DNA of 64,000 nt. It comes from a virus (taxonomy: Duplodnaviria > Heunggongvirae > Uroviricota > Caudoviricetes). Shown here one piece after another: positions 18,116-57,663 of this stretch. The translations under genes and the position numbers were made by a program. The DNA lies in the IMG/VR virus record IMGVR_UViG_3300027777_000022; one strand, 5' to 3'. Under the pieces are notes generated by a model that had not been told where the DNA came from, searched no databases, and was given only the letters and a program-made list of their open reading frames with translations. Every line of letters starts with the position of its first letter. The stretch's first letter is position 1.

Positions 18116-18116
18116 T

Positions 18117-24791: not shown

Positions 24792-24820
24792 AATTCTACT
24801 TGTTTTTGCTATAAGTCCAA

Positions 24821-24849
24821 ATTGTAACATCAAATGGATTACGTGTCAA
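24821..24849 (-). promoter_or_regulatory. sigma70-like promoter TTGACA-N17-TACAAT
   Basis: Minus strand: -35 TTGACA (plus 24844-24849), 17-nt spacer, -10 TACAAT (plus 24821-24826). Confidence 0.5.
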
Positions 24850-40087: not shown

Positions 40088-40297
40088 TTAGAAGTCTTTG
40101 CCGCCCAGTTCTACCGTGATAACTTCTTGTTGTTGTGCAGCCAGCAGGCGATTTTGCAAGTCTGTCATGGTCAACAGCAGCTTGGTTATATCAGCATGCA
40201 GGTCTTTGGCATCTCGCATGGACATGATGAAGTCACGTTGAGCACGTGCCTCATGTGCCTTTACTGAATCAACAAACCGATTGATATGGATGCTCAC
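40088..40297 (-). CDS. hypothetical protein (69 aa)
   Basis: ORF. Confidence 0.3.
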   Translation of the reverse strand: MSIHINRFVDSVKAHEARAQRDFIMSMRDAKDLHADITKLLLTMTDLQNRLLAAQQQEVITVELGGKDF

Positions 40298-40755: not shown

Positions 40756-41119
40756 CCTTCTTTTTCAAGAAAGGTTTCAAGTTTGGTGGTTCCCAACCTT
40801 GTGGCTTGAGCACCTTGCCATCTTCACGCTTGCGCACCTTGCCGTTGGCTTCGATCTTTGCAAAGTTAGTGGCCATTACTTCTTTCCAGGCTGCTTCTCC
40901 ATCAAAGCCTGCACTATGTATAGCACCAATGGTAACAACCAAGATATCAATCAAGGCATCCAATGTTTCAACCTGATCGCCCACAGCAAGAGCTTGCATT
41001 AGCTCTGTTTTTTCTTCTTCAATCAGTTTGACATACATATCAAACTGTGCAGTATCACCAGTGACGCTTTGGTCACAGGCTTTCATAAATTTTTCTTGAT
41101 CACGGAAGAGGTTTGACAT
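40733..41119 (-). CDS. mazG: MazG-like nucleoside triphosphate pyrophosphohydrolase
   Basis: EEEKTELMQALAVGDQVETLDALIDILVVTIGAIHSAGFDGEAAWKEVMATNFAK is a MazG-type EExxE...D core. Start set at MSNLFRD; the longer ORF overlaps the upstream gene. Confidence 0.55.
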   Translation of the reverse strand: MSNLFRDQEKFMKACDQSVTGDTAQFDMYVKLIEEEKTELMQALAVGDQVETLDALIDILVVTIGAIHSAGFDGEAAWKEVMATNFAKIEANGKVRKREDGKVLKPQGWEPPNLKPFLKKKGAFNKFS

Positions 41120-41558
41120 TGGCTTCTTCTCGGGTATAAAATGGACCTTGATACGGATAACGTTCCAAGGTAATGAGTTTGGGGCTTTGTACAATGGTCC
41201 AGGTTCGACGTTGTTTGACCTGATACCATCCGGCAGCATACCACGAACGTGACTTGCGACTCTTGGTAAACAGCGGAAGTTTATGTTGAACATTCCAAAT
41301 GGGATTGTATACTCGAGCTCCTGACGGATATCCTTGCACTTGATAACTGGACGGCTGTTTGTTGGGTCGGTTACCCACCGCTGGAAATTCAATATCAACT
41401 TGTTTACGGATCATGGCCATGGTCTTGAATGGCATGACCTTGTTGTTGATCCGTACTGCAAAGCCATCTCCTGTGGCTTCGATGTTGCCGACTTTTTTAT
41501 CATCCTGCGTGAGGATGTAAAACTGATCTTTAACTATGGGTTTGGCTATGATGCTCAT
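41100..41558 (-). CDS. hypothetical protein (152 aa)
   Basis: ORF. Confidence 0.45.
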   Translation of the reverse strand: MSIIAKPIVKDQFYILTQDDKKVGNIEATGDGFAVRINNKVMPFKTMAMIRKQVDIEFPAVGNRPNKQPSSYQVQGYPSGARVYNPIWNVQHKLPLFTKSRKSRSWYAAGWYQVKQRRTWTIVQSPKLITLERYPYQGPFYTREEANVKPLP

Positions 41559-42552
41559 CTAGTGTTCCTTTATAGGTTTCGTTGAGCCAGCGAGCATATT
41601 GCTCTGCTGATTCGGATATCTTGTTGAGTTCGTACTTGCCGCAGAACTTCATGAATCTCACACCAACTTGACCAATGTCCTTGTGGCTGATCTGTTCACG
41701 TATTGCGCCATCTACTTTGGCTTTGATTGCTTCTGGCTGTGCAGTGAGATCAATCAACACACGATTGCGTTCGTAGTCGTCTTTCACACGATGCTCATCA
41801 CCATTGTGGTCAGTCCAACGTTGCAACATGAGATTGTTCCAGTTGAATCCTTTTGAGTTACGGTCTTCAAATGCTTCTTGCAAGCCAACTCGGTTCTTTG
41901 TGCCCTTGGTTCTCACACCAGGATACGCTGAAAATACATTGTCTGAAGTATCACCGCGCATGCATTTTTCAAACAACAGCCATTCAGGGTCTGGAATCTC
42001 TTTGTCTGTCTTGGTTTTTTTGTCTTGCACACGCTTGCCCTTGGCATCAAAGATGCCATTCACGGTGTGAAGTTCGTCAGTGATGCCATTGTATTGGCTA
42101 ACATTGGGCGCTAGCAGTTGCACAAAATCTGTATCTGATGAAATAATATAGTGCTCATCTTGTGGATGCAAGGCTATCCAACGAGCAATAACGTCGTCCG
42201 CTTCGGCTTCTGGGTGTCGAATAACACTACAGTTGGTACCGTCGGCCAAATATTTAGTCAGGCTATCGTAGGTTTCCCAAAATAATTTGTCCTCTTCTTG
42301 CTCTGTGTCCGATAGTGCAGCACGGGCCACAGCACGATTTTTCTTGTAAGGAGCGTAGTAGTCCTTGCGCCATGATCGACCTTCCAGTGCAAAAATCACA
42401 TGATCTGTTTGAAACTGTTTGTGTACTTTGTTCACACTGCTCATCACAATGTGTAAAGCATATCCTACTTTTTCCCACGCATCGGCAGCACGGAAAACAG
42501 AGTGACGGGCACGGAAAAAAGTGTTAGCTGTGTCAATCAGGAGATATCTCAT
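41530..42552 (-). CDS. rnh: RNase H / 5'-3' flap endonuclease (T4 rnh-like)
   Basis: YYAPYKKNRAV...EADDVIA...IISSDTDFVQL aligns by eye with T4 RNase H (YYYKKNRGK...EADDHIA...IISSDGDFTQL). Confidence 0.8.
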   Translation of the reverse strand: MRYLLIDTANTFFRARHSVFRAADAWEKVGYALHIVMSSVNKVHKQFQTDHVIFALEGRSWRKDYYAPYKKNRAVARAALSDTEQEEDKLFWETYDSLTKYLADGTNCSVIRHPEAEADDVIARWIALHPQDEHYIISSDTDFVQLLAPNVSQYNGITDELHTVNGIFDAKGKRVQDKKTKTDKEIPDPEWLLFEKCMRGDTSDNVFSAYPGVRTKGTKNRVGLQEAFEDRNSKGFNWNNLMLQRWTDHNGDEHRVKDDYERNRVLIDLTAQPEAIKAKVDGAIREQISHKDIGQVGVRFMKFCGKYELNKISESAEQYARWLNETYKGTLDEHHSQTHS

Positions 42553-44835: not shown

Positions 44836-45957
44836 TTAGAACAAGTCAACTTTTTCCCACGGCAAATGGGCTTTACCAAAATGTCCGTAGTTTGTGGTAT
44901 CGCTGTAGATTGGGCGGAACAACTCAAAGCGATCAATAATTCCTTTGGGAGTGAGATCTACCATGTTTGGAATACTCAAAGTCAGATGCCTTGCCAGAGC
45001 TCGATCCTCACATTCCACATAGAAACTCATGGGTTGTGATAGTCCGATTGCATAACTGATTTGCACAGTGGCCCACTTGGCTTGACCACTGGCCACAATG
45101 TTCTTGGCAAGATATCGCATCATGTATGCAGCACTACGATCAACTTTGGTTGGATCCTTGCCTGAAAAAGCACCGCCTCCGTGTGGACTGTATCCACCAT
45201 ATGTGTCCACAATAATCTTGCGCCCAGTTAGGCCAGTGTCACCGTCGGGGCCACCAATCACAAAACGTCCGGTTGGGTTGATATGGAATTCTGTATGCTC
45301 ATCCACATACTGTGCAGGCAAAATATCACGAATAAGAGTTTCCACATTGGCTCGTAATGCATCAGTGGTAATACAGTCACGATGTTGAGTAGAGCACACC
45401 ACCTTGGAGATTCTTACAGGAACACCATCGTTGTCGTACTCAAATGTGACCTGACTCTTGGCATCCGGGCCTAACCAATCAAGTTCTGACTGCTTGCGAC
45501 GATACGACAACATCTCTACAATTTTGTGACTCCAGTAGATGGCACTGGGCATGAACGTATCAGTTTCGTTGCAGGCATATCCAAACATTAGACCTTGATC
45601 ACCTGCACCAAACGTGTCAGTACCTAGTGCGATATCTGCTGATTGTCCATGCAGTAGATTGGTAATCTCAACTGTGCGCCAGTCAAATCCTGATTGTTCG
45701 TAACCAATATTTTTAATTGTTTTACGAATTGTTGAATCAACTTCTTCATCATGCAGCACACCCTTGTACTCGCCTGCAACTACCACACGATTGGTAGTGA
45801 CTAGAGTTTCGCATGCACATCGTAACGCAGTATCTTGCGTGGACATAACCAAGTCCAACACAGCATCACTGATAGCATCTGCTACCTTATCTGGGTGCCC
45901 TTCAGACACGCTTTCGCTTGTAAATAAATAACTCATTTTTTCCTTTTTAAATTCCAA
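44836..45957 (-). CDS. metK: S-adenosylmethionine synthetase
   Basis: FTSESVSEGHPDKVADAISDAVLD, GDQGLMFGYA, FINPTGRFVIGGP, GRKIIVDTYGG and HGGGAFSGKDP all match MetK. Confidence 0.93.
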   Translation of the reverse strand: MEFKKEKMSYLFTSESVSEGHPDKVADAISDAVLDLVMSTQDTALRCACETLVTTNRVVVAGEYKGVLHDEEVDSTIRKTIKNIGYEQSGFDWRTVEITNLLHGQSADIALGTDTFGAGDQGLMFGYACNETDTFMPSAIYWSHKIVEMLSYRRKQSELDWLGPDAKSQVTFEYDNDGVPVRISKVVCSTQHRDCITTDALRANVETLIRDILPAQYVDEHTEFHINPTGRFVIGGPDGDTGLTGRKIIVDTYGGYSPHGGGAFSGKDPTKVDRSAAYMMRYLAKNIVASGQAKWATVQISYAIGLSQPMSFYVECEDRALARHLTLSIPNMVDLTPKGIIDRFELFRPIYSDTTNYGHFGKAHLPWEKVDLF

Positions 45958-46208
45958 ATCAAAAACTCATGTTTATCAACCCAATAAGTTTTTATCACCT
46001 GATCTCCTGGCCCATAAATGTACTGATCTGCAACATATGCACGTTTACCCCATAATGGTTTTCCGCTTAAGAAACATTTTTGTGGGAGCCAACATAATTT
46101 TAATTCCCACCCCCGGGCTCTATTCAATCCCCAGTCTTGATATTCTTGGGTTTGTTGTTCACGTGCCCAATCTTGCTTAACCCATTCGTGTTGTGTCATG
46201 TGCCCCAC
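45933..46208 (-). CDS. hypothetical protein (91 aa)
   Basis: ORF between queE and metK. Confidence 0.35.
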   Translation of the reverse strand: MGHMTQHEWVKQDWAREQQTQEYQDWGLNRARGWELKLCWLPQKCFLSGKPLWGKRAYVADQYIYGPGDQVIKTYWVDKHEFLIWNLKRKK

Positions 46209-47059
46209 TCGTTCTTGAACAACGGAACCTGTAGTCGATCACTGTAGCGCCAGCCTTGATTCATGGCCATAATAGCCACAGCCTTGTTGTTCAACGAGTA
46301 AACACTTTCCACTCCGCCAATGGGCATCAAGTACACATGGCCCTTGAATCCAGCTGCACGATACTCTGCTACTGCACGTTGAGCGTCTGCAAAATCTTCT
46401 TGGGTAGCGATTACCAGCTTCAAGTATGTGTGGCCAACATCTTGGTATTGACACACGATCTCTGGACGTATGGCATCCTCCCACTTTTCACCTGAGCAAG
46501 GCAATTTAGCACTCACACTAAATGTCAATGCTTCGCGCCCACGTGACTTGTTACCTAGGGACCAGTTCAGCAGGTACTGCCTAAACTCCGTACTGAGTTC
46601 TTGGGTACCATTGGTCTCAAATGTGATCTCTCTAACACCTGCCATCTTGGGATCATCCAACAAGCTGGGATAAGCACGTTGCCAACCCAGCAATGGTTCA
46701 CCACCTGTGATCACAAGATGTTCATCGCGCCATTCTTTAAACGGCAGCATGGCCGCAATATCCTCTGCCAGTTCAGCATTTTTACGCATGGGACTTAGAT
46801 TTTTGAAATCAGGATGCCAGCTGGCGTAGCTGTCACATCCTGTACTAACCAATGGCAGTTCTTCGTATTTTGTAAATGGATGCATGGCATTCATAACTGC
46901 CACTTCATCTGCTTCTTTGCTGAGTTCACCACGCGGCATGCCAAAGCCTGCGCATTTGAAGTTGCATCCAAACACACGCAAGAACACGCTGGGTACCCCC
47001 ATATAACGTCCTTCACCTTGGATACTGTAAAACAGTTCCGCTACTTTAAGTTTACTCAT
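46196..47059 (-). CDS. queE: 7-carboxy-7-deazaguanine synthase (QueE)-like radical SAM enzyme
   Basis: AELFYSIQGEGRYMGVPSVFLRVFGCNFKC plus ITGGEP. Start set to MSKLKV to remove an 88-nt overlap with the upstream gene. Confidence 0.7.
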   Translation of the reverse strand: MSKLKVAELFYSIQGEGRYMGVPSVFLRVFGCNFKCAGFGMPRGELSKEADEVAVMNAMHPFTKYEELPLVSTGCDSYASWHPDFKNLSPMRKNAELAEDIAAMLPFKEWRDEHLVITGGEPLLGWQRAYPSLLDDPKMAGVREITFETNGTQELSTEFRQYLLNWSLGNKSRGREALTFSVSAKLPCSGEKWEDAIRPEIVCQYQDVGHTYLKLVIATQEDFADAQRAVAEYRAAGFKGHVYLMPIGGVESVYSLNNKAVAIMAMNQGWRYSDRLQVPLFKNEWGT

Positions 47060-47847
47060 ATTTTTTGTGCTTTGATTAACAGATGCCAACCTAGGTATTC
47101 TTTCACTGCTGCTCGCATGTCTTCGGGCATGGCAGCAAACCAAGGCTCCAATTCGTACTCGCCTTGCCGGTACTTAGATACATTATACATGAAATTATGA
47201 TCTTGCCTAATTCTTAGCACTCGAAACTTTGCCTCCAATAGATCATAAATTTCTTCTTTGCTGTAGGCTTTGGCATAGGGACAATCTGATTGTGCTTCAA
47301 ATTGATCTAGTCCTTTTTGGATCATGGCATATTTCCAAGAGTTCTTTGCATATACCAACATGCGGAATTCTCCGTCGGGCACCAGGGCAGCATGAATATT
47401 ATTCAAGCATGCAGTCATGTCTGGATAGTGATGCAGTACCCCGCAACTGTACACTAGATCAAATTTGCCCAGGCTGGACACTGCTGCACTATCTGCACCA
47501 TCCATCACATGAAACTCTCCAGTTAGTCCAAACAAGTCAAATCTTTGTTGACTCATAGCTACAGATTCTGCTGAAAGATCAATTCCCACATAGTCTGCAC
47601 CATGTCGGGCAAATTCCACAGCATCGGATCCAATACCAGATCCTATTTCCAACACACGTTTGCCGCGCCACAAGTGAAAACTAGCAAAATCACGTAGATG
47701 AGGTTCTACAAAGAATCTACGTTCGGTGACTTCATTCCAATATTGTTCTGTGCCCGGATCGCTCAGACTGTGTTTGACATTACAAGGTTGTACATTCCAG
47801 TAATGTTTGATTCGATCTATAAGTTCAGTGGTCAAGTGTAGTGGCAC
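47056..47847 (-). CDS. class I SAM-dependent methyltransferase
   Basis: VLEIGSGIGSDAVEFARHGADYVGIDLS (motif I, GxGxG). Confidence 0.7.
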   Translation of the reverse strand: MPLHLTTELIDRIKHYWNVQPCNVKHSLSDPGTEQYWNEVTERRFFVEPHLRDFASFHLWRGKRVLEIGSGIGSDAVEFARHGADYVGIDLSAESVAMSQQRFDLFGLTGEFHVMDGADSAAVSSLGKFDLVYSCGVLHHYPDMTACLNNIHAALVPDGEFRMLVYAKNSWKYAMIQKGLDQFEAQSDCPYAKAYSKEEIYDLLEAKFRVLRIRQDHNFMYNVSKYRQGEYELEPWFAAMPEDMRAAVKEYLGWHLLIKAQKI

Positions 47848-48667
47848 TCCAGGATTTCATTAGACCTTTGGTGTCTAGTTTCAACATCTTATGCCAGATG
47901 TCAATTTTGTTTTCTATTCCCAATTTAAAATGTTCAAGATCGTAGCCCAATTCTGCTAGATAGTTGGCAATTTTTATTGCTTCTTGCATGCGGCGGGTAC
48001 GCCATGTATGATAATTAAAATCTCTAGGATGATTAGGATTACCTTCCAGCATGGGACGATTCTTAAACACATCGTCACCATTCTTACCTGTGAGATCAAA
48101 ACGTTCATGTTCAATCATTACAGGTATGGTAATCACAATATCCAGCATCCAGCCAATCTGACTGGCCCATGCATCGTTGATCTGATGTGGCGATATGTTA
48201 CCTGTAAGCTCTACCCATTTGCGTGGCAAGATAGGAAAGATAGCATACGGATGGCCATGATTGGTTTCGGCTCGTAACAATGCAAATCGATCATTGTGCT
48301 CGCGTATGACATCGTCCCAGCCCTGAGTGGTCATCACAGCATCATCGTTCCAAAAGAAAATCCACTTTCCGGTGCTGTGATTGGCCAGCTCATTCAGGTA
48401 TTCATTCAGTCGAAGATACCCTAATCTTTTGAATTGCATGGCACTATAGGTCACACCCTTTGCATCAAGATATGGAGCAATCACATCCACAAAGTATTTT
48501 ATAGTATCTGTGTCATCATCATCAAATGCTATCAATACTTCAATGCGTTCGGGGCAAGTGGCAGTACCAATCAGAGTGTGCAAGCATTGCTCCATTGGGA
48601 TTGGTCTTGCACGTACTGGTAATAGTACACTGATATCTATGTTGGGATTTTGTGCAGGCAAACTCAT
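47825..48667 (-). CDS. GT-A fold (family 2-like) glycosyltransferase, paralog A
   Basis: ISVLLPVRAR N-terminus and WIFFWNDDAVM (DxD); shares FFWNDDAVM and HPY-IFPI-P-W blocks with 50586..51416. Confidence 0.5.
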   Translation of the reverse strand: MSLPAQNPNIDISVLLPVRARPIPMEQCLHTLIGTATCPERIEVLIAFDDDDTDTIKYFVDVIAPYLDAKGVTYSAMQFKRLGYLRLNEYLNELANHSTGKWIFFWNDDAVMTTQGWDDVIREHNDRFALLRAETNHGHPYAIFPILPRKWVELTGNISPHQINDAWASQIGWMLDIVITIPVMIEHERFDLTGKNGDDVFKNRPMLEGNPNHPRDFNYHTWRTRRMQEAIKIANYLAELGYDLEHFKLGIENKIDIWHKMLKLDTKGLMKSWSATTLDH

Positions 48668-50589
48668 TGTGTTATACGGGTAATATTAGTTTTTCCAAAG
48701 TTGCGCTTTCTACTAAAGTACATGTTTTCTAAAAAACGGTCTTCGCTCATTTCGGAATCTTCAACAGTATCAAATTGGTAAACTGTGGCGGTTTTTAGCG
48801 TGGCATTGTCTTGTATGTAACCAAGGAAGTCATATTCAAATGTCTGTGTGATTGGCAACGATTTTAAATCTCTATAGTCAATTACATAATTTCTTTGAAA
48901 CTGTAGCAATTGATGTTTCACTTGCAAATCAATATTATAATGACTCTGCAAAAATTTGTCAAGCGAATCAAACACATAATTGATCATTTGATCTTTGACC
49001 ATGTACAGAGTGGTCCTGTGCATGAGGTTCCACCCGAACACTTCAATGTTACCAATACGAGGGTGGTCAATACGTCCTTTGGTCATCCAGTTTTGGAAAT
49101 AACTGCGTGTTTCTAAAAACTGTAATTTAAACCAAGGATCTTTTTGTACCCATGCATAGAGGTCTTCATAGAACTTGCTGTAATCAATGTTTTGGTGCTT
49201 GGCTAGATATCGTGCAATGTAGGTTGATAGACCGTTGATATGGAAAGTTTGTATAAAACTACTCCATACCAAGGTATCCAACATGGTCTCTCGTGGTATG
49301 GTCTTTGTGCTTACTACCACATCAATGCTTTCGTTGAGATCCACATCACCGTAACTGCCGCTCATGTAATCGTATACAGGTACACTTTCCAACTTGTACA
49401 GCTTCTTCTGCAAGAGATTCATCTCTGCATTTTCCAGCAATTGACATTGTAGAATGTTGATCCCGCCATGATTGCCTGCTCGGAAGATTTTCCAAAAGGC
49501 TTCTTTCCATGATTCTACTGTTTCCCCCGGTAAGCCTAGAATCAATTCTGTGTATACAGGAATATTGTTCCGGTCGCACAGTGCAAAGATTTCATCAATC
49601 TTGTGTTGATCAAGATTACGACGTTTGATATTCTCTAACACATCGTTGTCCATGCTTTGCACACTGACCGTGAGCCCTTGACCAAAGTTAGGTGACTCAT
49701 CAATCAGTTTCTTAACAATGCCCACAACTTCGTTCTTTTGATTCTTGGCCCAGGTCATGGAAAAACTTTCCAGTTTACCCCAACGCTTTTGCACTTCGAT
49801 CAGTTTGTCCACAATCATGTTGTCACGCTCTACAAACATACCAAAGTTGGCATCGGTAATGGTGACAAAGCCACAATGTTCACCAATCCAATCCAATTCA
49901 TCGTATACACGTTGCAGCTCAAACTTCTTGACTTTGTTGTATGTGAGACTGCCCCAGTCGCAGAATGTGCATTGATAAGGGCATCCGCGATTGGTTTCCA
50001 GTGTGGCATTCCATATTACTTCGGGGCTCTCAGACATGATACGATCAAATACGCCTGTGAGATATGGACTAGGCACTTCGTCTAGATTGTTGATACGTTT
50101 GGGATCTCCTGTGTCAACTAGTCCTGTGCCTGTATTGATCAAAAGTCCAGGAATGTGTGTGTAGTCAGTGCCGTAATCTTCAAGAATATGTCGAAACGTC
50201 ACTTCGCCCTCCATCTTGATCACCAAATCCATAAACGGTTCTTTTTCAAACAATTCAGGATCTTCAATAGCCGGTTCGGGCCCACCGAATATTATAGTAC
50301 ATTTGGGGTTGAGCGTCTTTACTAACTTTGCTAGTTTATAATTGTAGCGATGATTCCATACGTAAGTTGAAAATGCTACCACGTTACTGGTGCTTAGTTT
50401 CAGCGCCTGTTCTTCAATGGGTTCCCTGCGCCATACCAAGTGATCTACTTCCCATTCTGCATTGACTTTTTTTGAAGCCAGTGCATAACTCAGTATAACT
50501 CCTGCAGAATACGGCAAGTAGTAGGCATTGAATTCTTTAGGACCTTGTTGAAAGTTAGGTTGTACAAAGCTGATTTTCTTTTTTGTCAT
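48664..50589 (-). CDS. B12-binding domain / radical SAM protein (641 aa)
   Basis: NRGCPYQCTFCDW (CxxxCxxC) with an N-terminal B12-binding-like region. Confidence 0.7.
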   Translation of the reverse strand: MTKKKISFVQPNFQQGPKEFNAYYLPYSAGVILSYALASKKVNAEWEVDHLVWRREPIEEQALKLSTSNVVAFSTYVWNHRYNYKLAKLVKTLNPKCTIIFGGPEPAIEDPELFEKEPFMDLVIKMEGEVTFRHILEDYGTDYTHIPGLLINTGTGLVDTGDPKRINNLDEVPSPYLTGVFDRIMSESPEVIWNATLETNRGCPYQCTFCDWGSLTYNKVKKFELQRVYDELDWIGEHCGFVTITDANFGMFVERDNMIVDKLIEVQKRWGKLESFSMTWAKNQKNEVVGIVKKLIDESPNFGQGLTVSVQSMDNDVLENIKRRNLDQHKIDEIFALCDRNNIPVYTELILGLPGETVESWKEAFWKIFRAGNHGGINILQCQLLENAEMNLLQKKLYKLESVPVYDYMSGSYGDVDLNESIDVVVSTKTIPRETMLDTLVWSSFIQTFHINGLSTYIARYLAKHQNIDYSKFYEDLYAWVQKDPWFKLQFLETRSYFQNWMTKGRIDHPRIGNIEVFGWNLMHRTTLYMVKDQMINYVFDSLDKFLQSHYNIDLQVKHQLLQFQRNYVIDYRDLKSLPITQTFEYDFLGYIQDNATLKTATVYQFDTVEDSEMSEDRFLENMYFSRKRNFGKTNITRITQ

Positions 50590-51416
50590 CCAGTATTTAC
50601 TCGTCTAGCTGTGGCATCAACTTGATTATTGGTGTCGTTGGCCCGCATCTTCTCCCACGGATCCTGCTGCCCTTGCCATGCATTAACAAAAAATGTTAAG
50701 TCAAGCCCTTGATCCTGCATCCATGTGGCCAGTTTAGCAGTATCATTGGTACGTATTTTGACCATGTCAGGATGATTTAGATCTCCTGGTTGACTGGGAT
50801 CACCTTCCATGATACAACGCTGCTGATAGGTTGCGTCGTTGTTTGCACCAGTGATGTCATATCGATTGTGATCACAATGCACATCAATGCGTTCAAAGAT
50901 ATCTAGGTAGTATGCAATCTGACTCACATACGCATCATTGCTACTGTGTTGACTGATATGCCCTAGTATTTCAAACCATTGGCGCGGCACGATGGGAAAG
51001 ATACTGTACGGATGATCATTGTGTGTATGCACACTCAGCAGTTTGAATTCACCTATGCGCTTGCGTATACATGCATCCCACCCAGGAGTTTTCATCACAG
51101 CATCATCGTTCCAGAAGAACAACCAGGAGCCTTGACTGTGTTCGGCTAGTCCATTTACATATTGGTGCAAGTTGTTGTAACCCAGTGGCTCAAACACCAC
51201 GATCTTGTGATTGACTTTGTTTTGTTCAATCCACGGGCATACGTTGTTCAGCATGTTCTCCATGCCTACCACGTCATCGTTATCTACACCAAACAATACT
51301 TCAATTGAAGCAAAATCCTCAGCCAGGGTGCAGAGACTTTGTATACTGCTCATTAGTGCCTCTGCCCGCCCGCGAGTAGGTAGCAATATACTGATATCAA
51401 TTTTGCTATTCATCAC
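50586..51416 (-). CDS. GT-A fold (family 2-like) glycosyltransferase, paralog B
   Basis: ISILLPTRGR and LFFWNDDAVM; paralog of 47825..48667. Confidence 0.5.
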   Translation of the reverse strand: MMNSKIDISILLPTRGRAEALMSSIQSLCTLAEDFASIEVLFGVDNDDVVGMENMLNNVCPWIEQNKVNHKIVVFEPLGYNNLHQYVNGLAEHSQGSWLFFWNDDAVMKTPGWDACIRKRIGEFKLLSVHTHNDHPYSIFPIVPRQWFEILGHISQHSSNDAYVSQIAYYLDIFERIDVHCDHNRYDITGANNDATYQQRCIMEGDPSQPGDLNHPDMVKIRTNDTAKLATWMQDQGLDLTFFVNAWQGQQDPWEKMRANDTNNQVDATARRVNTG

Positions 51417-51892
51417 TCAAACTCATTATCCTCACGATGACCTTGACGGCCTGCCATGTTTGAATCTGTTTCACGAACTTCTACTCTGGTACACCACACA
51501 CGTCGGGCTTCTTCCGCACCGCAGTTGGGCAAGAAGATTGTGTTAACATATTCGTACAAAAAGTCAGCAATGCCTTCACATCCGGTCTTTTCTACTTCTG
51601 TTATCTTGGCCAATTTGAGTCTGCCAAGTTCCAACAAGTGTTCACGCATGGGATCATCCTGTGCTACTAAAAAAGTGTGATCAAACCAATCTTCTAACAG
51701 GCCCTTGAGTGGTTTTAATCCACCAAAGTCTGTAACCCAATTACGGGCATCTAATGTATCTGCTTCAAATTCAAAGTGAAAACTCATTGCGTAACCGTGT
51801 ATGAGATTGCAGTGACTGTCAGCTCGCCATTGACGATACGCTACAGGCCCAATTTGCTTGTAGGTTTTTGTTGAAAAATATTTCTTTGCCAT
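51413..51892 (-). CDS. queD: 6-carboxy-5,6,7,8-tetrahydropterin synthase (QueD/PTPS family)
   Basis: SHCNLIHGYAMSFHFE parallels QueD HKCGRLHGHSFMVRLE; also NWVTDFGGLK and FDHTFLVAQDD. Confidence 0.75.
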   Translation of the reverse strand: MAKKYFSTKTYKQIGPVAYRQWRADSHCNLIHGYAMSFHFEFEADTLDARNWVTDFGGLKPLKGLLEDWFDHTFLVAQDDPMREHLLELGRLKLAKITEVEKTGCEGIADFLYEYVNTIFLPNCGAEEARRVWCTRVEVRETDSNMAGRQGHREDNEFE

Positions 51893-51971
51893 GATTTTCT
51901 CCTATGTTAGATTATAGCATAGGCGGCGGAGTTTGTATAGCGGGACGATGCCGATAGGCCGCTGTGAATAT

Positions 51972-52376
51972 TTATTCCGGTAATTGATAGCCAGTGGCTT
52001 TGTAGTCAGCTTGGCCAAATACAACTCCTCGCACACCGCCCACAGGATTAGCAGTGTCGCCCATGCGACGTGGGATAAAATGCACATGCGGATACATCAC
52101 TGTTTGCCCGGCAGTAGGGCCCATATTGATACCAATGTTGAATCCTTCACAGTGCCCTTGTTCCACCATGCGACGACCATGCAGCATGGCTGATTCCATA
52201 CAGTCAATGATCACAGCATCGGTATTGTAGTTGGGCACAAACAACAAATGACCACGTGTGACAGGATACCGATCTTCAAACACAGTGATGTGAAAATCAC
52301 TCAGCTCTTGTACCAGTTGATCCCACGGCGCCACACCAGCGGCTTGTGCATCGTCAAGTGTTTTGTAATCTATCAT
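51972..52376 (-). CDS. HIT-family hydrolase-like protein
   Basis: GQTVMYPHVHFIPRR resembles the HIT histidine-triad segment, with one His position substituted. Confidence 0.45.
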   Translation of the reverse strand: MIDYKTLDDAQAAGVAPWDQLVQELSDFHITVFEDRYPVTRGHLLFVPNYNTDAVIIDCMESAMLHGRRMVEQGHCEGFNIGINMGPTAGQTVMYPHVHFIPRRMGDTANPVGGVRGVVFGQADYKATGYQLPE

Positions 52377-53164
52377 CGTGGTGCAAATTCTTGTTGTAGT
52401 TTGATATTGTCAAAGAACTCTTTCTTGGTTCCTGAATCGTCTTTAAATGCACCTTTGAGTACAGTGGTCTGTGTGAGACTTGAATGTGCCATGATACCTC
52501 GATTGGTGCAGCAACCATGTTCGGCTTGTATATAAACTGCTACATTGTCACTGTCAGTAACCTTCATGATCTCTCTTGCAATATCGTTGCACAGTTCCTC
52601 CTGTAGCGTACCGCGGCGGGCACACCATTGAGCAATACGAGTATACTTAGACAGGCCAATAAGTTTGTTAGCAGCCAAAATACCAATATAAGCAACACCG
52701 CTGACAGGTTGATGATGGTGCGAACACATTGAACGTAGCTCGCTACGGATCACAAGCATGCCTTCGTAACGATCGTCTGAATCATTTGGAAAAGCTGTTG
52801 CGTCTGGTGCTGGTTCATATCTGCCTTGCATGATTTCGTTGTAGTACATCTTGGCCAGGCGTCGTGCTGTGCCTTTAGAGTTGGGATCTGTTTCGCGATC
52901 AATTAGTAGTGCATCTAGAACTTTTTCAAATGCTGCTGTGGCTTCATCAATCAAATCTTCTTTATCAGGGCCAACCAGATAGTCACTGATGTTGTCACCG
53001 GCCCAGAATCTTTTGCCATCAGCTCGCATACGATCACGTATTACTGTGCTTAGATATTGACCTTGTGCTGCATCTTCTTTTTTGATATACAACGTTTGTC
53101 CTTCCAGTGGAACAAATTCTTCAGTGTGTGGATGTATCACCGGATCCGGTTTAAATTCTCGCAT
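52373..53164 (-). CDS. folE: GTP cyclohydrolase I
   Basis: LRSMCSHHHQPV (C-E/S-H-H), LIGLSKYTRIAQ and NVAVYIQAEHGCCTNRG align with FolE. Confidence 0.88.
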   Translation of the reverse strand: MREFKPDPVIHPHTEEFVPLEGQTLYIKKEDAAQGQYLSTVIRDRMRADGKRFWAGDNISDYLVGPDKEDLIDEATAAFEKVLDALLIDRETDPNSKGTARRLAKMYYNEIMQGRYEPAPDATAFPNDSDDRYEGMLVIRSELRSMCSHHHQPVSGVAYIGILAANKLIGLSKYTRIAQWCARRGTLQEELCNDIAREIMKVTDSDNVAVYIQAEHGCCTNRGIMAHSSLTQTTVLKGAFKDDSGTKKEFFDNIKLQQEFAPR

Positions 53165-53165: not shown

Positions 53166-53777
53166 TTATTCCTTAATGGTTATGTTTCGCAAATCTGGAT
53201 ACTGTACAAACTTGGGTGATTCTGGAGCTGTCGCGTACTGTACCAACAACTCTAGTCCACGTTCAGCATCTTCAATTGAGGGCTTGTAGTGATATCCCAA
53301 CTGGAATGTTTTTTGTGTTTCCCAGGGTGAGATATTTAGGTCGCGACCATCATATCGTTGTTTTATCATCACTTCGTAGGCTTGCTTGTTATCTAACAGT
53401 ATAGCACCACCGTGACCTATTTGTAAAGGCTTTGTGTGTCCAAAACTCAAGCACTGCATCTGTCCTGTACGATACATGTCAGGTTCTAATCTTCTAGCAC
53501 TATCCCAAATTCTGGTGTATATGAAATTGTATTCACCAGTCCATGTTTGTTCAGTATCATCCAGATACACATAGTCAATGCCTAACTTGTGCATGGTCAT
53601 GGGTACACTTAGATAAGTGTAAGGGGTCATCTTGAGACCCTTTACTCGCTCGTATCGCAAACACATTTCTATGGCATGTGTACAGCAATCAGTCATGATT
53701 GCAGCAGGAGCACCAGTAAACCGGGCCAATGCCCGTTCAAATTCAAGGATTTTTTCGAACATACCAGGCCCATGCAT
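53166..53777 (-). CDS. short DegT/DnrJ/EryC1-like (PLP aminotransferase-like) protein or fragment
   Basis: FEKILEFERALARFTGAPAAIMTDCCTHAIEMCL and KPLQIGHGGAIL resemble DegT-family N-terminal and Lys regions, but the protein is only 203 aa. Confidence 0.3.
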   Translation of the reverse strand: MHGPGMFEKILEFERALARFTGAPAAIMTDCCTHAIEMCLRYERVKGLKMTPYTYLSVPMTMHKLGIDYVYLDDTEQTWTGEYNFIYTRIWDSARRLEPDMYRTGQMQCLSFGHTKPLQIGHGGAILLDNKQAYEVMIKQRYDGRDLNISPWETQKTFQLGYHYKPSIEDAERGLELLVQYATAPESPKFVQYPDLRNITIKE

Positions 53778-54699
53778 GTTGAATCATATCGTCCAGAGTG
53801 TACTGACGCCAGTTGGGCATCAACTTACTAAACTTTTCTGCATTGGCAGTGAGCACAGCAGGATCACCAGTACGACGTTCTTCTACGCCAATATACGGCA
53901 TTTTGCCAACAACATCTCTTGCACGACTCATTACTTGCTTGACGCTGAATCCCCGATTAGATCCTAGATTGTAAACACCGGATGGCACAGCAGCATCCAA
54001 CGCACACACATGAGCATGAGCAATATCTTCCACATGTACATAATCACGCACACAACTTCCGTCTGGTGTGTCGTAATTGTCGCCGTATACTCTGAATTGC
54101 CCGTCATCCCTTGTGGCTTCCAAGATTCTAGCAATCACGTGTGTAGCACCGGGTTCCTGCCCATGTCGACCTAACCGGTCGGCTCCGCAGGCATTGAAGT
54201 AACGAAATGCCACATAGTCAAGACGATATGCATGATGATAGCTGGCTAACACTTGTTCGATCATGCGTTTGCTTTCACCATACGGGCTCATGGGCTCGCA
54301 TGGATCAACTTCTGAACATGGAAACAGACTTGTTCCTCCGTACACTGATGCACTTGAACTAAAGATAACTCTGGTCTTAGGCAAGGCATTACAAACCAAA
54401 TCCAACAAGTGGATGGTCTTGATCACATTGTTGTGATAGTAATCCGAAGGATATTTAACGCTGGGGCCTACCAAACTGGTTCCAGCACAATGAATAATAG
54501 CATTGGGTTGTAGCTGTATCAATTTTGTTTTGGCTTGATCGCTATCAAAGTCCGCCTGAACAAATCGACTAAACGCATCCGTCAAGAGAGGCGGGCAAGG
54601 CCTACGATCAATACCAATCACCCGGTGTCCGACATCAAACAAAGCCAATGCCACTTGGCCGCCGATGTATCCTGCTGCACCAGTTACTACCACATCCAT
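53743..54699 (-). CDS. NAD-dependent sugar epimerase/dehydratase (GalE-like)
   Basis: VVVTGAAGYIGGQV Rossmann motif and YGESK (YxxxK). Confidence 0.75.
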   Translation of the reverse strand: MDVVVTGAAGYIGGQVALALFDVGHRVIGIDRRPCPPLLTDAFSRFVQADFDSDQAKTKLIQLQPNAIIHCAGTSLVGPSVKYPSDYYHNNVIKTIHLLDLVCNALPKTRVIFSSSASVYGGTSLFPCSEVDPCEPMSPYGESKRMIEQVLASYHHAYRLDYVAFRYFNACGADRLGRHGQEPGATHVIARILEATRDDGQFRVYGDNYDTPDGSCVRDYVHVEDIAHAHVCALDAAVPSGVYNLGSNRGFSVKQVMSRARDVVGKMPYIGVEERRTGDPAVLTANAEKFSKLMPNWRQYTLDDMIQHAWAWYVRKNP

Positions 54700-55875
54700 T
54701 TAGAATTTTCCTTCTCGTGTGTGTTTTCTATAGTCTACACTCATACGCAGCATATCTTCTCCATTGCCCTGCATGATATCTAGCACACGATCGATTGTGC
54801 CGTTGTTGCGATCGCTAATCTGTCCCTGGCGTGGATGTTGCCAAGTCAGCAGTATTTCCAATTTGTTCAGTGCATCTTCTATGCTCCAGGGAACATAAAG
54901 CCTAGAATGGTCATTACTAAAAGTCTCAGGGAAACTACGATAAGCAGGGTATAAAACATTACACCCAAGACTATCTGCTTCTGAGACCGTGTTAGAAACC
55001 CAATCTTGAAGTGCGCAATTGAACACAACACGGCTATCGTTTACAATGTTGTAGTAATCGTTCTTTTCCAAATCTTCGTAGATTACCAATTTGCCTGCTG
55101 CTTGTAGATCACGTGTGCGTTGCATATAGCTTTCACTATTGCTTTTTAGTTTGCCACCACTGCATACTGCAAACTCCACAGGCAGACTGGGATGACGAGT
55201 GTGCCATGCTTCAATCAAGTCCATGTAGAAGTCTGGTTGCTTCTCTTGATCCCACCGTGCTGAAAACACCACACGTGATTTGCGTTCAGACCATGGCTTG
55301 ATACTAGACACACGTGATTGCACTTCTGCCTTGCCAAATGCCAATCCTGAAATATTATAGATCGGAGCCTGCCAACCTGCAATCTTCATGTGTGCTACCA
55401 TTTCTTCGTTTGTGGCCAGCACGCCATCTACAAAGGAGTCAACCATCTTTTCATAGTGACCCATCCAAGTAGACATACCCCAAACGTGTACAAAATCATC
55501 AGGGTCAATAGACTGAGCCAAACATCTGACAAAAATGCGAGGGCGCAAGTGTACTGGAATTTGATCCAAGATATACGGGAGGCTCTCAATTCCGGGTTGA
55601 AACATGTCTTCAAAGTAGACCACATCTTCATTGTTAATTTCTCCTGCTTTCATCATACGAACAAGATTCATCAGTTGACTCATGCCAAAGTATGTGCGAC
55701 CATGCGCATCTAATACTTGGCCTGTCACAATTGCTTGGTCGTTGCTGAGTGTTTCACCGGGCACTATGACATAGTCAATCTTGCGACGATCAAAAACCGC
55801 AGTATTCCAGTGTTGTAACTGTAGAGTGTAACGTGCTTTATAGGGCTCTAGGCCCATGTAAAACAGTTTTCTCAT
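54700..55875 (-). CDS. GT-B fold (GT4-like) glycosyltransferase candidate
   Basis: KSRVVFSARWDQEKQPDFYMDLIEAW and ...SEADSLGCNVLYP resemble the GT4 C-terminal donor-binding region. Confidence 0.35.
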   Translation of the reverse strand: MRKLFYMGLEPYKARYTLQLQHWNTAVFDRRKIDYVIVPGETLSNDQAIVTGQVLDAHGRTYFGMSQLMNLVRMMKAGEINNEDVVYFEDMFQPGIESLPYILDQIPVHLRPRIFVRCLAQSIDPDDFVHVWGMSTWMGHYEKMVDSFVDGVLATNEEMVAHMKIAGWQAPIYNISGLAFGKAEVQSRVSSIKPWSERKSRVVFSARWDQEKQPDFYMDLIEAWHTRHPSLPVEFAVCSGGKLKSNSESYMQRTRDLQAAGKLVIYEDLEKNDYYNIVNDSRVVFNCALQDWVSNTVSEADSLGCNVLYPAYRSFPETFSNDHSRLYVPWSIEDALNKLEILLTWQHPRQGQISDRNNGTIDRVLDIMQGNGEDMLRMSVDYRKHTREGKF

Positions 55876-56096
55876 GTGCGATATCCTGCCAAGCGACGAG
55901 TATCCTCATCCCACATGTTCTTGGCTGGCTTGCCTTGAGTGTGTTTGTTGAATTGTTGGAATGCATAACTGCGGAAGTTATACAGGTCCGACTCGTTGAA
56001 CTTGTATCCGTAGTCCACGCAGAACTCACGATACTGCTCCAGGTCCTCCAGAGTTTGTTCAGCACGGGGATTGTGTTTGATGATGACTTTGGCCAT
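55872..56096 (-). CDS. hypothetical protein (74 aa)
   Basis: ORF in the co-directional operon. Confidence 0.35.
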   Translation of the reverse strand: MAKVIIKHNPRAEQTLEDLEQYREFCVDYGYKFNESDLYNFRSYAFQQFNKHTQGKPAKNMWDEDTRRLAGYRT

Positions 56097-56107: not shown

Positions 56108-56563
56108 TTAGAGTTTGATAGATTGATAAGGTTGCAGGACATTGTACACTATCACAGCACCATTTTCACCGTCTTCGCTCACGTTGATAATGATGCTGCG
56201 ATCTGGATAACGAGCAGCAATTTGCTCATATAGATCGTCACTGATCATTTCACAACTCTTGTGATCGAGTTCCAGTGTGCCATTGGCATAGAGATTTTCT
56301 AGCCAACGCTTGAACTGAATGAACTCAATGTCACGGTCGTTGTGAAATACTTGCACAGTTACTTCAAAGTGAAACATGTGTCGATGCGGGCTTGCTAGGA
56401 AACTCACATCATATTCATCGCCTGTGGCCAGCGCAGGGTCTGTAGCTGCTGCTGGATAGCAATGGATGCCTTCCTTTTGAAATCGCACAAAGATGGTTCT
56501 AAAAGCCTTATCTTTGATGCGTGTTCGGGTTTCTTCAAGTGCTTGTTGTTGTTGCTGTATCAT
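56108..56563 (-). CDS. hypothetical protein (151 aa)
   Basis: ORF in the DpdA-proximal block. Confidence 0.4.
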   Translation of the reverse strand: MIQQQQQALEETRTRIKDKAFRTIFVRFQKEGIHCYPAAATDPALATGDEYDVSFLASPHRHMFHFEVTVQVFHNDRDIEFIQFKRWLENLYANGTLELDHKSCEMISDDLYEQIAARYPDRSIIINVSEDGENGAVIVYNVLQPYQSIKL

Positions 56564-56569: not shown

Positions 56570-57130
56570 TTATTCCAAAGTAAAAAGATTAGAAAAAGTA
56601 GATCGAGACATGGCCTCAAGTTTCTTCATGGCACCATCAGTAAATCTAAACTGATATGACCTAGGTCCGTCGGCCATGCGTTCAAAAAACCCATAGTAGC
56701 CACCCGAGACATAATTACGTTGATCACCGTCGATGATTTTTTGTCTAGCTACTTCGTAACATTTTTCAATTTTTTCTTGTATATGTGGTGCTGAAAAATC
56801 GTATACTTCAGCCGAGACTATGATTTGATCTCTGGACTTGATTCGATATTGTTGTTGTAATTTGTGATAGATCGTGGATTTTTTATACGGGGTTGATTTA
56901 ATATTTCTAGCAGACATTGTACCAACTGTGTGTGCCGAAGTAGCGTCGAGATCTCTTGTTTTGACTTCAAAATCACATTGTGGTATATCTGCCCCTGGGC
57001 CATTGGATAAAGGAACTCCTCTCTTGATCAGTTTCTTTTCGCCGTCTCGTCCCGACGCACCGCCAAAGGTTGGTGCAATAGATTCTCCCACAATGTTCAC
57101 TTTGAGATGAGTGATCTTGGGTTTCTTCAT
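56570..57130 (-). CDS. hypothetical protein (186 aa)
   Basis: ORF in the DpdA-proximal block. Confidence 0.4.
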   Translation of the reverse strand: MKKPKITHLKVNIVGESIAPTFGGASGRDGEKKLIKRGVPLSNGPGADIPQCDFEVKTRDLDATSAHTVGTMSARNIKSTPYKKSTIYHKLQQQYRIKSRDQIIVSAEVYDFSAPHIQEKIEKCYEVARQKIIDGDQRNYVSGGYYGFFERMADGPRSYQFRFTDGAMKKLEAMSRSTFSNLFTLE

Positions 57131-57663
57131 AATGTTTCGTCCTTGGTATATTTAGACCAGTCAGTAAAGTGGTCTCGATTTTGTAGTTCATGTATGCTGT
57201 GACACCAAACGCCTGGGTTGGTAGCAGCAAAGTCTCGATCGTCCAGCTTGAGAGTGGCATTGTATCCCAACTGACGGATGTAAGGCAGCTTGACAGAGAT
57301 CATTGGAATAAAGTTGTGATATTCAACAAGGGCAGATTCTAACAAGCCCTCAACGCAGTTGACATCTATGTCTAACGTACACAGGTATCCTTTTTGTAAA
57401 AAGGGTAAAATCATATTTTCCCATTGTGTCCACTTCACATAATCGTTAGTGCCGATAGTTGGAAAGCTCTGATTGGCACCAAAATAGATATGCTTGATAT
57501 GTGTTGACTTGTTTTCGTAACTGGCAAAGTCATCAATCCAATCTTGGATTTCTTGCACAGATTGTACACCTACTACAAACAATGTTTGTTTGCCCAATGC
57601 TGGTGTGTGTTCTACTTCAATTCCGGTGAAGAATTTTACTTCTTCGTGACCTTCTCGGTTCAT
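57127..57663 (-). CDS. hypothetical protein (178 aa)
   Basis: ORF in the DpdA-proximal block. Confidence 0.4.
   Translation of the reverse strand: MNREGHEEVKFFTGIEVEHTPALGKQTLFVVGVQSVQEIQDWIDDFASYENKSTHIKHIYFGANQSFPTIGTNDYVKWTQWENMILPFLQKGYLCTLDIDVNCVEGLLESALVEYHNFIPMISVKLPYIRQLGYNATLKLDDRDFAATNPGVWCHSIHELQNRDHFTDWSKYTKDETL

Follow-up and report, generated by a model that had tools for sequence, protein, structure and literature searches.

The 64-kb window analyzed here, a stretch of the IMG/VR virus record IMGVR_UViG_3300027777_000022 (Caudoviricetes), harbors an operon in which the genes for FolE, QueD, and QueE are accompanied by a homolog of DpdL, a predicted decarboxylase of 7-carboxy-7-deazaguanine (CDG), and by p514, a very divergent protein that probably belongs to the tRNA-guanine transglycosylase (TGT)/DpdA superfamily. 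The operon is probably a QueC-independent 7-deazaguanine DNA-modification system of the 2′-deoxy-7-deazaguanine (dDG) type. The first-pass annotation had noted that no QueC, the enzyme converting CDG to 7-cyano-7-deazaguanine (preQ0), lies between FolE, QueD, and QueE, and had named a CDG-derived, decarboxylated, dDG-like base as one possible explanation. The arrangement was confirmed by family matches for all three proteins and the lack of QueC in scans of the contig, and the decarboxylated base gained support from the DpdL homolog with its published signature and the adjoining TGT/DpdA-like protein. The anomaly that had been implied was mistaken, since QueC-less clusters of FolE, QueD, and QueE with DpdL and DpdA were described in 2023 (Cui et al., 2023; PMC10516641). 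The span under consideration (46196–53164) had also been too narrow, as it ended 3 kb short of the explanatory gene, which lies upstream in the same operon. The missing QueC is, hence, an ordinary puzzle explained by a published mechanism. What is apparently new is an abundant and seemingly undescribed transglycosylase subfamily, a conserved glycosyltransferase (GT) partner, and a set of lineage-specific tailoring enzymes within the operon.

FolE, QueD, and QueE are encoded in one tightly packed minus-strand operon (Table 1). FolE was 62.9% identical to FolE of Sinorhizobium phage Phosso, and its best full-length match outside the Phosso lineage was FolE of phi13:1, a dDG phage (36.9% identity over 90% of the length). 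QueD shared 37% identity (E 3e-25) with QueD of phi13:1, and the CxxxHGY motif is common to both. QueE is a divergent phage type, its scores of 44–50 bits against the NCBIfam QueE models all falling below the curated cut-offs of 200–300, and it showed 46% identity to the protein annotated as QueE in Synechococcus phage BUCT-ZZ01 and 34% to the QueE-like protein of KVP40/nt-1. It probably starts at the ATG of MSKLKV rather than at the TTG at 47143. The cysteine spacing of QueE is unusual, with C33-x3-C37 followed by C76 instead of the compact CxxxCxxC motif of radical S-adenosylmethionine (SAM) enzymes. None of the products encoded between folE, queD, and queE is QueC: apart from a histidine triad (HIT) protein, they comprise a pair of GT-A-like proteins, a B12-binding radical SAM enzyme, and a SAM methyltransferase.

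The absence of QueC is stated for this contig. The Pfam and NCBIfam scans, which took in every open reading frame (ORF) of the window of at least 200 aa, detected no QueC. Queries with QueC of nt-1 and pf16 gave nothing at E ≤ 1 by tblastn in any of the six frames of the window and chance-level scores by phmmer against its ORFs (best E 0.06); the positive control, nt-1 QueC against pf16 QueC, gave E 4e-77. A scan of IMG/VR with the DpdL alignment returned at least 588 relatives, of which 80 were tabulated together with one NCBI contig. In these 81 syntenic loci, 1.09 Mb in total, as in the window, none of QueC, DpdA2, and DpdA3 was found.

DpdL is a QueD-like T-fold protein predicted to decarboxylate CDG, in which an LxxxHRHxF signature replaces the CxxxHGH of QueD (Cui et al., 2023; PMC10516641). 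In the phages phiST, phi13:1, and phi19:2, which encode FolE, QueD, QueE, and DpdL without QueC, all G was shown experimentally to be replaced by dDG, and the divergent transglycosylase DpdA3 is predicted to insert the base in phiST-type phages (PMC10516641). The phi13:1 DpdL query matched a 151-aa ORF of the window (phmmer E 4.1e-12, 34% identity over 111 aa), which also matched phrog_17812 (E 3.6e-36). Its LASPHRHMF motif conforms exactly to the published signature (PMC10516641), and the residues L56, H60, H62, and F64 were found to be invariant across seven phage lineages. Comparison of the DpdL and QueD profiles with hhalign (E 2.5e-5, probability 75%) paired the invariant Cys of QueD with the invariant Leu of DpdL, which is the change described previously (PMC10516641). 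Homologs with 59–67% identity are present in Phosso, ACP17, and PA5oct, that of ACP17 (59%) being encoded beside dpdA, and those of the related loci are 65–82% identical to the DpdL of the window. On account of the DpdL signature, the CxxxHGY subtype of QueD, and a FolE closest to those of Phosso and phi13:1, the cluster was assigned to the DpdL-type, QueC-independent systems; with DpdL present, a host QueC would be unnecessary.

The candidate DNA guanine transglycosylase, p514, was recognized as such only through the consensus of its family alignment. Six motifs, LGDSGGFQI, LDIP, NVLQG, GW.xGGQ, HxLGTS, and FDCASPF, are invariant in homologs down to 48% identity and correspond, in canonical order, to the TGT core motifs DSGGFQ, LDE/IP, xxQGG, GGLxxG, HxLGxG, and xDC/S. 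They are collinear with those of the reference DpdA2, ACP17 gp123, which has obvious TGT motifs, and similarly spaced (residues 101/146/199/234/268/298 in p514 vs. 75/111/168/196/235/262 in ACP17 DpdA2). With hhalign, p514 matched a five-member DpdA2 profile at E 2.6e-4, with a probability of only 42%, and DpdA3 at E 0.049; for comparison, a match of DpdA2 against DpdA3, both recognized subfamilies, reaches only E 0.0057. The only significant Foldseek matches of the AlphaFold2 model (mean predicted local distance difference test score, pLDDT, 57) were the ArcTGT structures 1iq8 and 1j2b (E 1e-4, probability 1.00, TM ∼0.35), and QTRT2 ranked seventh among the matches.

Homologs of p514 occur in the PA5oct-like jumbo phages (32% identity over the full length) and in Phosso (30%), covering 81–98% of the length, and one tblastn match, weak at E 5e-3, is to a protein annotated with a TGT domain. 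The distribution is complementary to that of the known enzymes, as p514 homologs are found exactly in those DpdL phages that lack DpdA2 and DpdA3. In 75 of the 81 related loci, p514 lies between the clamp gene and dpdL, and its family comprises more than 7000 sequence clusters (7430). The DNA of PA5oct is refractory to restriction enzymes whose sites contain G, and the authors of that work read this as a modified G (PMC12191111). The motifs and the model suggest that p514 is a member of the TGT/DpdA superfamily and likely the DNA transglycosylase of this system. Judged by sequence, it falls outside DpdA2, DpdA3, and DpdA4, the subfamilies compared (bDpdA and DpdA1 stood outside the comparison): PF20314 (DpdA4/DUF6610) did not match p514, and queries with phi13:1 DpdA3 and the DpdA2 of ACP17 and BUCT (phmmer, BLAST, and tblastn) retrieved nothing from the window ORFs or the related loci. 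Pfam at E ≤ 10 gave no TGT signal on ten unassigned ORFs of the window. The subfamily common to PA5oct and Phosso appears to be undescribed, with the proviso that the supplementary tables of Cui et al. (2023) may already list PA5oct gp168 as DpdA.

The genomic setting places this module in a replication block. The window makes up nearly all of a 64,819-bp contig from a freshwater-lake metagenome (JGI 3300009154 Ga0114963_10000052). A protein identical to one gene product of the window is recorded on a contig of 348,042 bp, and the genome is of ∼348 kb; its source is an uncultured freshwater jumbo-type phage. The family-B DNA polymerase (PolB) showed 43–49% identity to that of Phosso (49%; genome of 469 kb), Agrobacterium phage Atu_ph07, and Rak2/BF-like phages, and megablast of a 12-kb region against 50,697 phage records gave no match. 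From 63773 down to 44362, every gene lies on the minus strand, and neighbors either overlap by 4 bases or stand no more than 79 bases apart. The order is PolB, p396, a clamp-like protein of 240 aa (its Phosso homolog, 32% identical, is annotated as a sliding clamp), p514, p178, p186, DpdL, p74, and GT391, followed by an NAD-dependent epimerase, a half-length DegT-like protein, FolE, HIT, QueD, a GT-A-like protein, and the B12-binding radical SAM enzyme, and finally the second GT-A-like protein, the SAM methyltransferase, QueE, p91, MetK, and a DUF2452 protein. The 7-deazaguanine module follows immediately after the genes for the DNA polymerase and the clamp. The order is highly conserved in the related loci: PolB, clamp, p514, (p178), DpdL, p74, GT391, (epimerase, DegT), FolE, (HIT), QueD, a variable slot, QueE, and p91, the genes in brackets being optional. 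Between QueD and QueE, the variable slot contains nothing recognized, or the GT-A/B12-binding radical SAM/GT-A set (at least one of these genes was detected in 11 loci), or a type I phosphoribosyltransferase.

The chemistry of FolE, QueD, and QueE is established for these families, and, assigned here by homology, the three enzymes would convert GTP via dihydroneopterin triphosphate (H2NTP) and 6-carboxytetrahydropterin (CPH4) to CDG. In the pathway proposed on the basis of the literature, DpdL, a T-fold protein, would then decarboxylate CDG to 7-deazaguanine, in place of QueC making preQ0. After replication, p514 would swap guanine in the phage DNA for the deazapurine, as suggested by its motifs, fold, homology, synteny, and distribution and by the restriction phenotype of PA5oct. 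The epimerase, DegT-like, HIT, GT-A, B12-binding radical SAM, methyltransferase, and MetK proteins may elaborate the base or supply cofactors.

Several observations weigh against this interpretation. The decarboxylase activity of DpdL has been predicted but never demonstrated for any member of the family, and co-expression of dpdL and dpdA of phiST and of ACP17 in E. coli yielded no dDG, upon which the authors suggested that further enzymes may be needed (PMC10516641). Apart from the low hhalign probability given above, Pfam returned no TGT match (PF01702) for p514 even at E ≤ 10, and a profile search of PDB sequences with p514 retrieved no TGT. The AlphaFold2 model of p514 is of low confidence (pLDDT 57, predicted TM-score, pTM, 0.66), because its shallow alignment held near-identical sequences only. 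About 64 kb of the ∼348-kb genome is covered, leaving room for a QueC elsewhere, and the 34 tRNA genes of the window, which include all GUN anticodons, make a tRNA target conceivable. Finally, given the constant glycosyltransferase partner and the tailoring genes, the end product may be something other than plain dDG.

This constant partner is GT391, whose gene is separated from dpdL by p74. GT391 itself matched Pfam only at E 0.005 (PF13524). Its homolog in Xanthomonas phage X1 matched PF00534 (Glycos_transf_1; E 8e-12), and the family is therefore presumably GT-B/GT4-like; a few homologs at 83–85% identity carry PF00534/PF13524. GT391 was 67.5% identical to the BUCT-ZZ01 protein adjoining DpdL, and homologs are encoded beside DpdL or DpdA in ACP17 (gp124, between dpdL and dpdA), X1/BUDD, Phosso (E 5e-10), and PA5oct (gp167, E 2e-13). 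The family, for which the protein database has more than 8000 clusters, is found together with DpdL in six lineages (the window clade, PA5oct, ACP17, X1/BUDD, BUCT-ZZ01, and Phosso). In related loci where PolB is ∼60% identical, GT391 is 70–87% identical and, thus, more conserved than the polymerase; on these identities, it is under purifying selection unusual for an accessory-looking phage gene. It is probably a further component of the modification system. A role of GT391 as a replacement for DpdA was rejected, as ACP17, X1, and BUCT-ZZ01 have both proteins.

These features bear on a rival reading, which we regard as possible but doubtful, namely, that the end product is not plain dDG but a glycosylated and/or C- or N-methylated derivative of 7-deazaguanine or CDG. 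GT391 would then be a partner of DpdL and DpdA, and in the subclade of the window a modified sugar or a methyl group would be made and attached by the two GT-A proteins, the B12-binding radical SAM enzyme, the methyltransferase, the epimerase, and the DegT-like and HIT proteins. The presence of GT391-family genes beside DpdL or DpdA in six lineages, their conservation beyond that of PolB, and the second GT-B gene carried by BUCT-ZZ01 and one subclade of the related loci are all in line with such an elaboration. So is the insertion of tailoring genes inside the operon, where the GT-A/B12-binding radical SAM/GT-A/methyltransferase block lies between QueD and QueE and the epimerase and DegT-like genes between GT391 and FolE. 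The failure of ACP17 dpdL and dpdA alone to produce dDG in E. coli likewise leaves a place for other enzymes (PMC10516641). However, phiST-type phages produce plain dDG without any BLAST-detectable GT391 homolog, 7-deazaguanine has no obvious glycosyl acceptor except N2 or O6, and glycosylated deazaguanine in phage DNA was not reported in the literature searched. Unrelated glycan genes are, moreover, frequent in large phages, and several are found elsewhere in the window. Because such genes occur away from the operon, the glycosyltransferases of this genome are not automatically tied to DNA modification. The glycan- or cofactor-type genes in question, at 3351–8063, 16938–19493, 22399–23157, and 32859–33770, code for a methyltransferase, a GT9 heptosyltransferase-like protein, two radical SAM proteins (6612–8063 and 22399–23157), a haloacid dehalogenase (HAD) phosphatase fused to a weak NTP-transferase-like region, and a GT17-like protein.

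A pre-replicative route appears improbable. Here, the base and phosphoribosyl pyrophosphate (PRPP) would give a nucleoside monophosphate and then a deoxynucleoside triphosphate for incorporation by the polymerase, leaving p514 in another role. A CDG phosphoribosyltransferase is employed in tubercidin biosynthesis and provides a precedent. A type I phosphoribosyltransferase (PF00156) is encoded between QueD and QueE in BUCT-ZZ01 and in two related loci (L078, L084) and between FolE and QueE in a third (L098), an indication of a possible nucleotide-level route there. The coordinates of these genes are L078:12556, L084:16193, L098:5507, and L001:12864–13325. Complete replacement of G in phiST (PMC10516641) and a MazG-like gene 5 kb downstream of the operon would also fit. 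The operon of the window, on the other hand, lacks a phosphoribosyltransferase, the gene of the TGT superfamily is kept in 75 of the 81 loci, and the literature favors post-replicative insertion by DpdA in all known cases (PMC10516641). A tubercidin-like secondary-metabolite reading was set aside, as the module is fixed in a replication block, includes a TGT-like gene, and has no phosphoribosyltransferase in the operon. The MazG/PRA-PH-like NTP pyrophosphohydrolase (40733–41398) and a base-excision-type protein of the HhH-GPD family (40294–40755), both ∼5 kb downstream of the operon, adjoin a 5′–3′ exonuclease (41530–42552); MazG-like genes are also found beside the deazaguanine clusters of phiST and pf16.

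It is quite improbable that a QueC of the host, or one encoded elsewhere in the ∼348-kb genome, converts CDG to preQ0 and that the DNA contains dPreQ0, the deoxynucleoside of preQ0, or a derivative. QueC is present in many bacteria, the related DpdA2 phages nt-1 and pf16 encode it, and only the 64 kb of the window is covered here. None of the 81 syntenic loci contained QueC, however, and where the gene does occur, in nt-1 and pf16, it adjoins DpdA2.

That the target is phage or host tRNA rather than DNA, with p514 acting as a tRNA-guanine transglycosylase, is very unlikely. The tRNA genes of the window include Asn-GTT and Tyr-GTA, each in two copies, His-GTG, and Asp-GTC, and by fold p514 comes closest to a tRNA enzyme, ArcTGT. 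Nevertheless, the module is embedded in the replication block running from PolB and the clamp to the 5′–3′ exonuclease, and PA5oct, with the same module, has restriction-resistant DNA consistent with a modified G (PMC12191111). To date, every TGT-like phage protein investigated has DNA as its substrate, and the DpdL phages examined carry dDG in their DNA (PMC10516641). The 34 tRNA genes lie on the minus strand between 5521 and 31245, mostly in arrays at 14234–16843 and 19547–22397; they cover 20 amino acids, with duplicated Asn-GTT/Tyr-GTA pairs and three Met-CAT, and all four queuosine-family anticodons (Asn, Tyr, His, and Asp) are represented. The window also encodes two RNA ligases and a RelA/SpoT-type HD_4 domain protein (23886–24833, 36302–37324, and 28467–28970). 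One ligase is Rnl1-like and the other Rnl2/PHA02142-like, the latter 49% identical to a BUCT-ZZ01 gene. Together with the HD_4 protein, they would fit tRNA repair and alarmone metabolism in a phage with so many tRNA genes.

The remaining candidate for the preQ0 step was the PP-loop protein located 20 kb away, which the first-pass annotation had described as a 362-aa SGGTDS protein lacking the QueC Cys cluster and had considered as a possible divergent QueC or Gat-QueC. The description was borne out. SGGTDS occupies residues 77–82 and is invariant in the family, which comprises 31 homolog clusters, all uncharacterized; the protein has only two Cys (58 and 273), neither conserved, and no column of the alignment of 26 family members exceeds 65% Cys. 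The proposed identity, in contrast, did not hold. No Pfam or NCBIfam family, the QueC models included, matched at E ≤ 0.01, so the protein does not score as QueC by profile hidden Markov models, and it was not among the phmmer matches of nt-1 and pf16 QueC at E ≤ 10. The AlphaFold model (pLDDT 83, pTM 0.85) gave weak fold matches (E > 1e-3) to carbapenam synthetase/AsnB, LarE, TtuA, and GMP synthase, and QueC was outside the top 50. The SGGTDS core and the PP-loop ATPase fold are traits of the whole superfamily and not specific to QueC. The gene forms a trio with those of a TctA membrane transporter subunit (24853–26160) and a TctC-like substrate-binding protein (26164–27078). The same trio is present in an unrelated marine phage contig (L018), there with duplicated TctA/TctC-like pairs and without FolE, QueD, or QueE in the surrounding 10 kb, and the PP-loop gene was found in 0 of the 81 DpdL loci. 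That this protein completes a preQ0 or 7-amido-7-deazaguanine (ADG) pathway as a divergent QueC or Gat-QueC is, despite its perfect SGGTDS and PP-loop ATPase fold, scarcely credible: it matches no QueC model, has no conserved zinc-site Cys, folds like AsnB/LarE/TtuA, and keeps its TctA/TctC synteny in two lineages away from deazaguanine genes. A different PP-loop protein, of 177 aa and of the PAPS (3′-phosphoadenosine-5′-phosphosulfate) reductase family, is encoded directly after FolE in the DpdA2/DpdL/GT cluster of X1 (L104:3197–3730); distinct from the PP-loop ORF of the window, it might be a CDG-activating enzyme in the X1 lineage.

Table 1. Genes of the modification operon and the distant PP-loop gene, with positions in the 64-kb window.
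Feature	Position	Strand	Evidence or occurrence
Family-B DNA polymerase (PolB)	61107–63773	minus	
p514, very divergent TGT/DpdA-superfamily protein, proposed DNA guanine transglycosylase	57660–59204	minus	motifs, hhalign, fold
p178, homolog of ACP17 gp122	57127–57663	minus	phmmer E 5.5e-11; in 29/81 related loci
p186, poorly conserved filler ORF	56570–57130	minus	in 2/81 related loci; no family match
DpdL homolog, predicted CDG decarboxylase	56108–56563	minus	phmmer, LxxxHRHxF motif, phrog_17812
p74, small conserved ORF between DpdL and GT391	55872–56096	minus	same position in 77/81 related loci; no Pfam match
GT391, GT-B (GT4-like) glycosyltransferase-family protein	54700–55875	minus	homologs with PF00534/PF13524
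NAD-dependent sugar-nucleotide epimerase/dehydratase	53743–54699	minus	PF01370 E 3.1e-53
Half-length DegT/DnrJ-like aminotransferase-family protein	53166–53777	minus	PF01041 E 9e-14
FolE, GTP cyclohydrolase I	52373–53164	minus	PF01227 E 7.6e-40
HIT-family nucleotide hydrolase/transferase	51972–52376	minus	PF01230 E 8.8e-8
QueD (CPH4 synthase), CxxxHGY subtype	51413–51892	minus	PF01242 E 5e-15
GT-A-like glycosyltransferase 1, DxD motif NDD	50586–51416	minus	phrog_14945 "glycosyltransferase" E 1.2e-11
B12-binding radical SAM enzyme, class B methylase-like	48664–50589	minus	PF02310 and PF04055
GT-A-like glycosyltransferase 2	47825–48667	minus	PF00535 E 8.7e-5; phrog_14945 E 3.2e-12
Class I SAM-dependent methyltransferase, accessory	47056–47847	minus	PF08242/PF13489 E 1e-16
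QueE (CDG synthase), divergent phage type	46196–47062	minus	five NCBIfam QueE models E 4e-13 to 1.6e-11
p91, small conserved ORF	45933–46208	minus	follows QueE in 13 related loci; no Pfam match
MetK, S-adenosylmethionine synthetase, accessory	44836–45957	minus	three MetK Pfam domains E 1e-32 to 1e-56
PP-loop ATPase, excluded as QueC, outside this system	27147–28235	minus	SGGTDS PP-loop, fold

The roles of GT391, p74, p178, and the HIT, epimerase, DegT-like, GT-A, B12-binding radical SAM, and methyltransferase proteins in the system are inferred from gene position only. In ACP17, the p178 homolog gp122 precedes DpdA2; p178 matched no Pfam or PHROG family. A relationship of p186 to a Phosso "glycosylase" was rejected for want of similarity. 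The epimerase occupies the same slot in the subclade of the window. The DegT-like protein covers only the N-terminal part of the PF01041 profile, and its relatives keep a gene of 198 aa. The HIT motif YPHVHFIPR retains the nucleophilic His, and the gene was found in 13 of the 81 loci, all within the subclade of the window. The first GT-A-like protein is a paralog of the second, its sole homolog in a cultured phage being a GT of HTVC008M (26% identity). The B12-binding radical SAM enzyme, for which cultured phages yielded no full-length homolog, matched NF033712 (KedN5-family C-methyltransferase) at E 3.9e-72, but with 243 bits against a cut-off of 700. The methyltransferase is missing from all 81 related loci, among them the relative L022, in which GT391 is 91% identical; MetK is likewise missing from L022 and occurs in one of the 81 loci (L098). 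MetK plausibly supplies SAM for QueE, the B12-binding radical SAM enzyme, and the methyltransferase. Phosso ORFs of 121 aa and 316 aa were considered as homologs of the HIT and GT-A proteins and rejected. PDB sequence searches, both single-sequence and profile-based, gave nothing useful for p514, p396, GT391, or the PP-loop protein.

Among known systems, the Cellulophaga phiST/phi13:1/phi19:2 dDG system consists of FolE, QueD, QueE, DpdL, and DpdA3 (Cui et al., 2023; PMC10516641). It shares with the window the QueC-less FolE/QueD/QueE set, the LxxxHRHxF DpdL, the CxxxHGY QueD, a location beside DNA polymerase genes, and a protein of the TGT superfamily too divergent for routine detection by hidden Markov models. 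It differs in that the transglycosylase of the window is of ∼514 aa rather than 259 aa and is not detectably DpdA3, DpdL identity is only 34%, and GT391, HIT, GT-A, B12-binding radical SAM, and methyltransferase proteins were not detected by BLAST in phiST-type clusters.

The PA5oct-like Pseudomonas jumbo phages (Wroclawvirus) and Phosso share with the window the p514-type transglycosylase, DpdL, and the GT391-family protein. In PA5oct, the layout is polymerase, a 248-aa protein, gp168 (p514 type), gp167 (GT391 family), gp166 (DpdL), small ORFs, and QueE, that is, the same PolB–p514–GT–DpdL–QueE order; in Phosso, the p514 homolog lies 170 kb away from the cluster. The epimerase/DegT/HIT and GT-A/B12-binding radical SAM/GT-A/methyltransferase/MetK insertions were not seen around the DpdL and QueE regions of these phages, and their genomes contain no homolog of the B12-binding radical SAM and GT-A proteins. 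The Phosso ORF in the QueD position (L003:10488–10895) is short and degenerate-looking, without the Cys and most of the C-terminal half, and QueD of Phosso may be defective or relocated.

Similar to the window, ACP17 (Acidovorax), X1/BUDD (Xanthomonas), and BUCT-ZZ01 (Synechococcus) encode FolE, QueD, QueE, and DpdL with an adjoining GT391-family protein, and no QueC is annotated in the cluster regions compared. Unlike the window, they use a recognizable DpdA2-type transglycosylase, and BUCT-ZZ01 additionally has the phosphoribosyltransferase and the second GT-B. The classical systems producing preQ0, deoxyarchaeosine (dG+), or the deoxynucleoside of 7-aminomethyl-7-deazaguanine (dPreQ1), as in nt-1, pf16, and 9g-type phages, also combine FolE, QueD, and QueE with a TGT-family DNA transglycosylase but encode QueC (beside DpdA2 in nt-1 and pf16) and lack DpdL. 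In the system of Campylobacter phage CP220, which makes the deoxynucleoside of ADG (dADG), synthesis is described as ending at CDG, with the divergent transglycosylase DpdA3 (PMC10516641); compared by description only, it differs in its 7-amido product and in that no DpdL is reported. No Campylobacter phage was among the DpdL matches.

The p514-type family, invisible to Pfam, would supply the DpdA that seemed to be missing from jumbo phages of the PA5oct and Phosso types, the former including therapy-candidate Pseudomonas phages with an apparently modified G. The GT391-type protein may be the "unknown enzyme" missing from the failed reconstitution with DpdL and DpdA. A broader proposal, which we put forward only tentatively and consider unlikely to hold in full, is that the p514-type protein represents a sixth, undescribed DpdA subfamily; that DpdL, the transglycosylase, and a previously unnoticed GT-B form the core of the pathway after CDG in an abundant clade of uncultured freshwater and marine jumbo phages and in the cultured PA5oct, Phosso, ACP17, and BUCT-ZZ01; and that, in the subclade of the window, the inserted GT-A/B12-binding radical SAM/GT-A block and the sugar-nucleotide enzymes, joined in this phage by the methyltransferase and MetK, make a glycosylated and/or C-methylated 7-deazapurine in DNA. 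If true, this would constitute a new class of purine hypermodification. Such a hypermodified purine would bear on the evasion of restriction and CRISPR, on recognition by type IV/END nucleases, and on sequencing artefacts in metagenomes.

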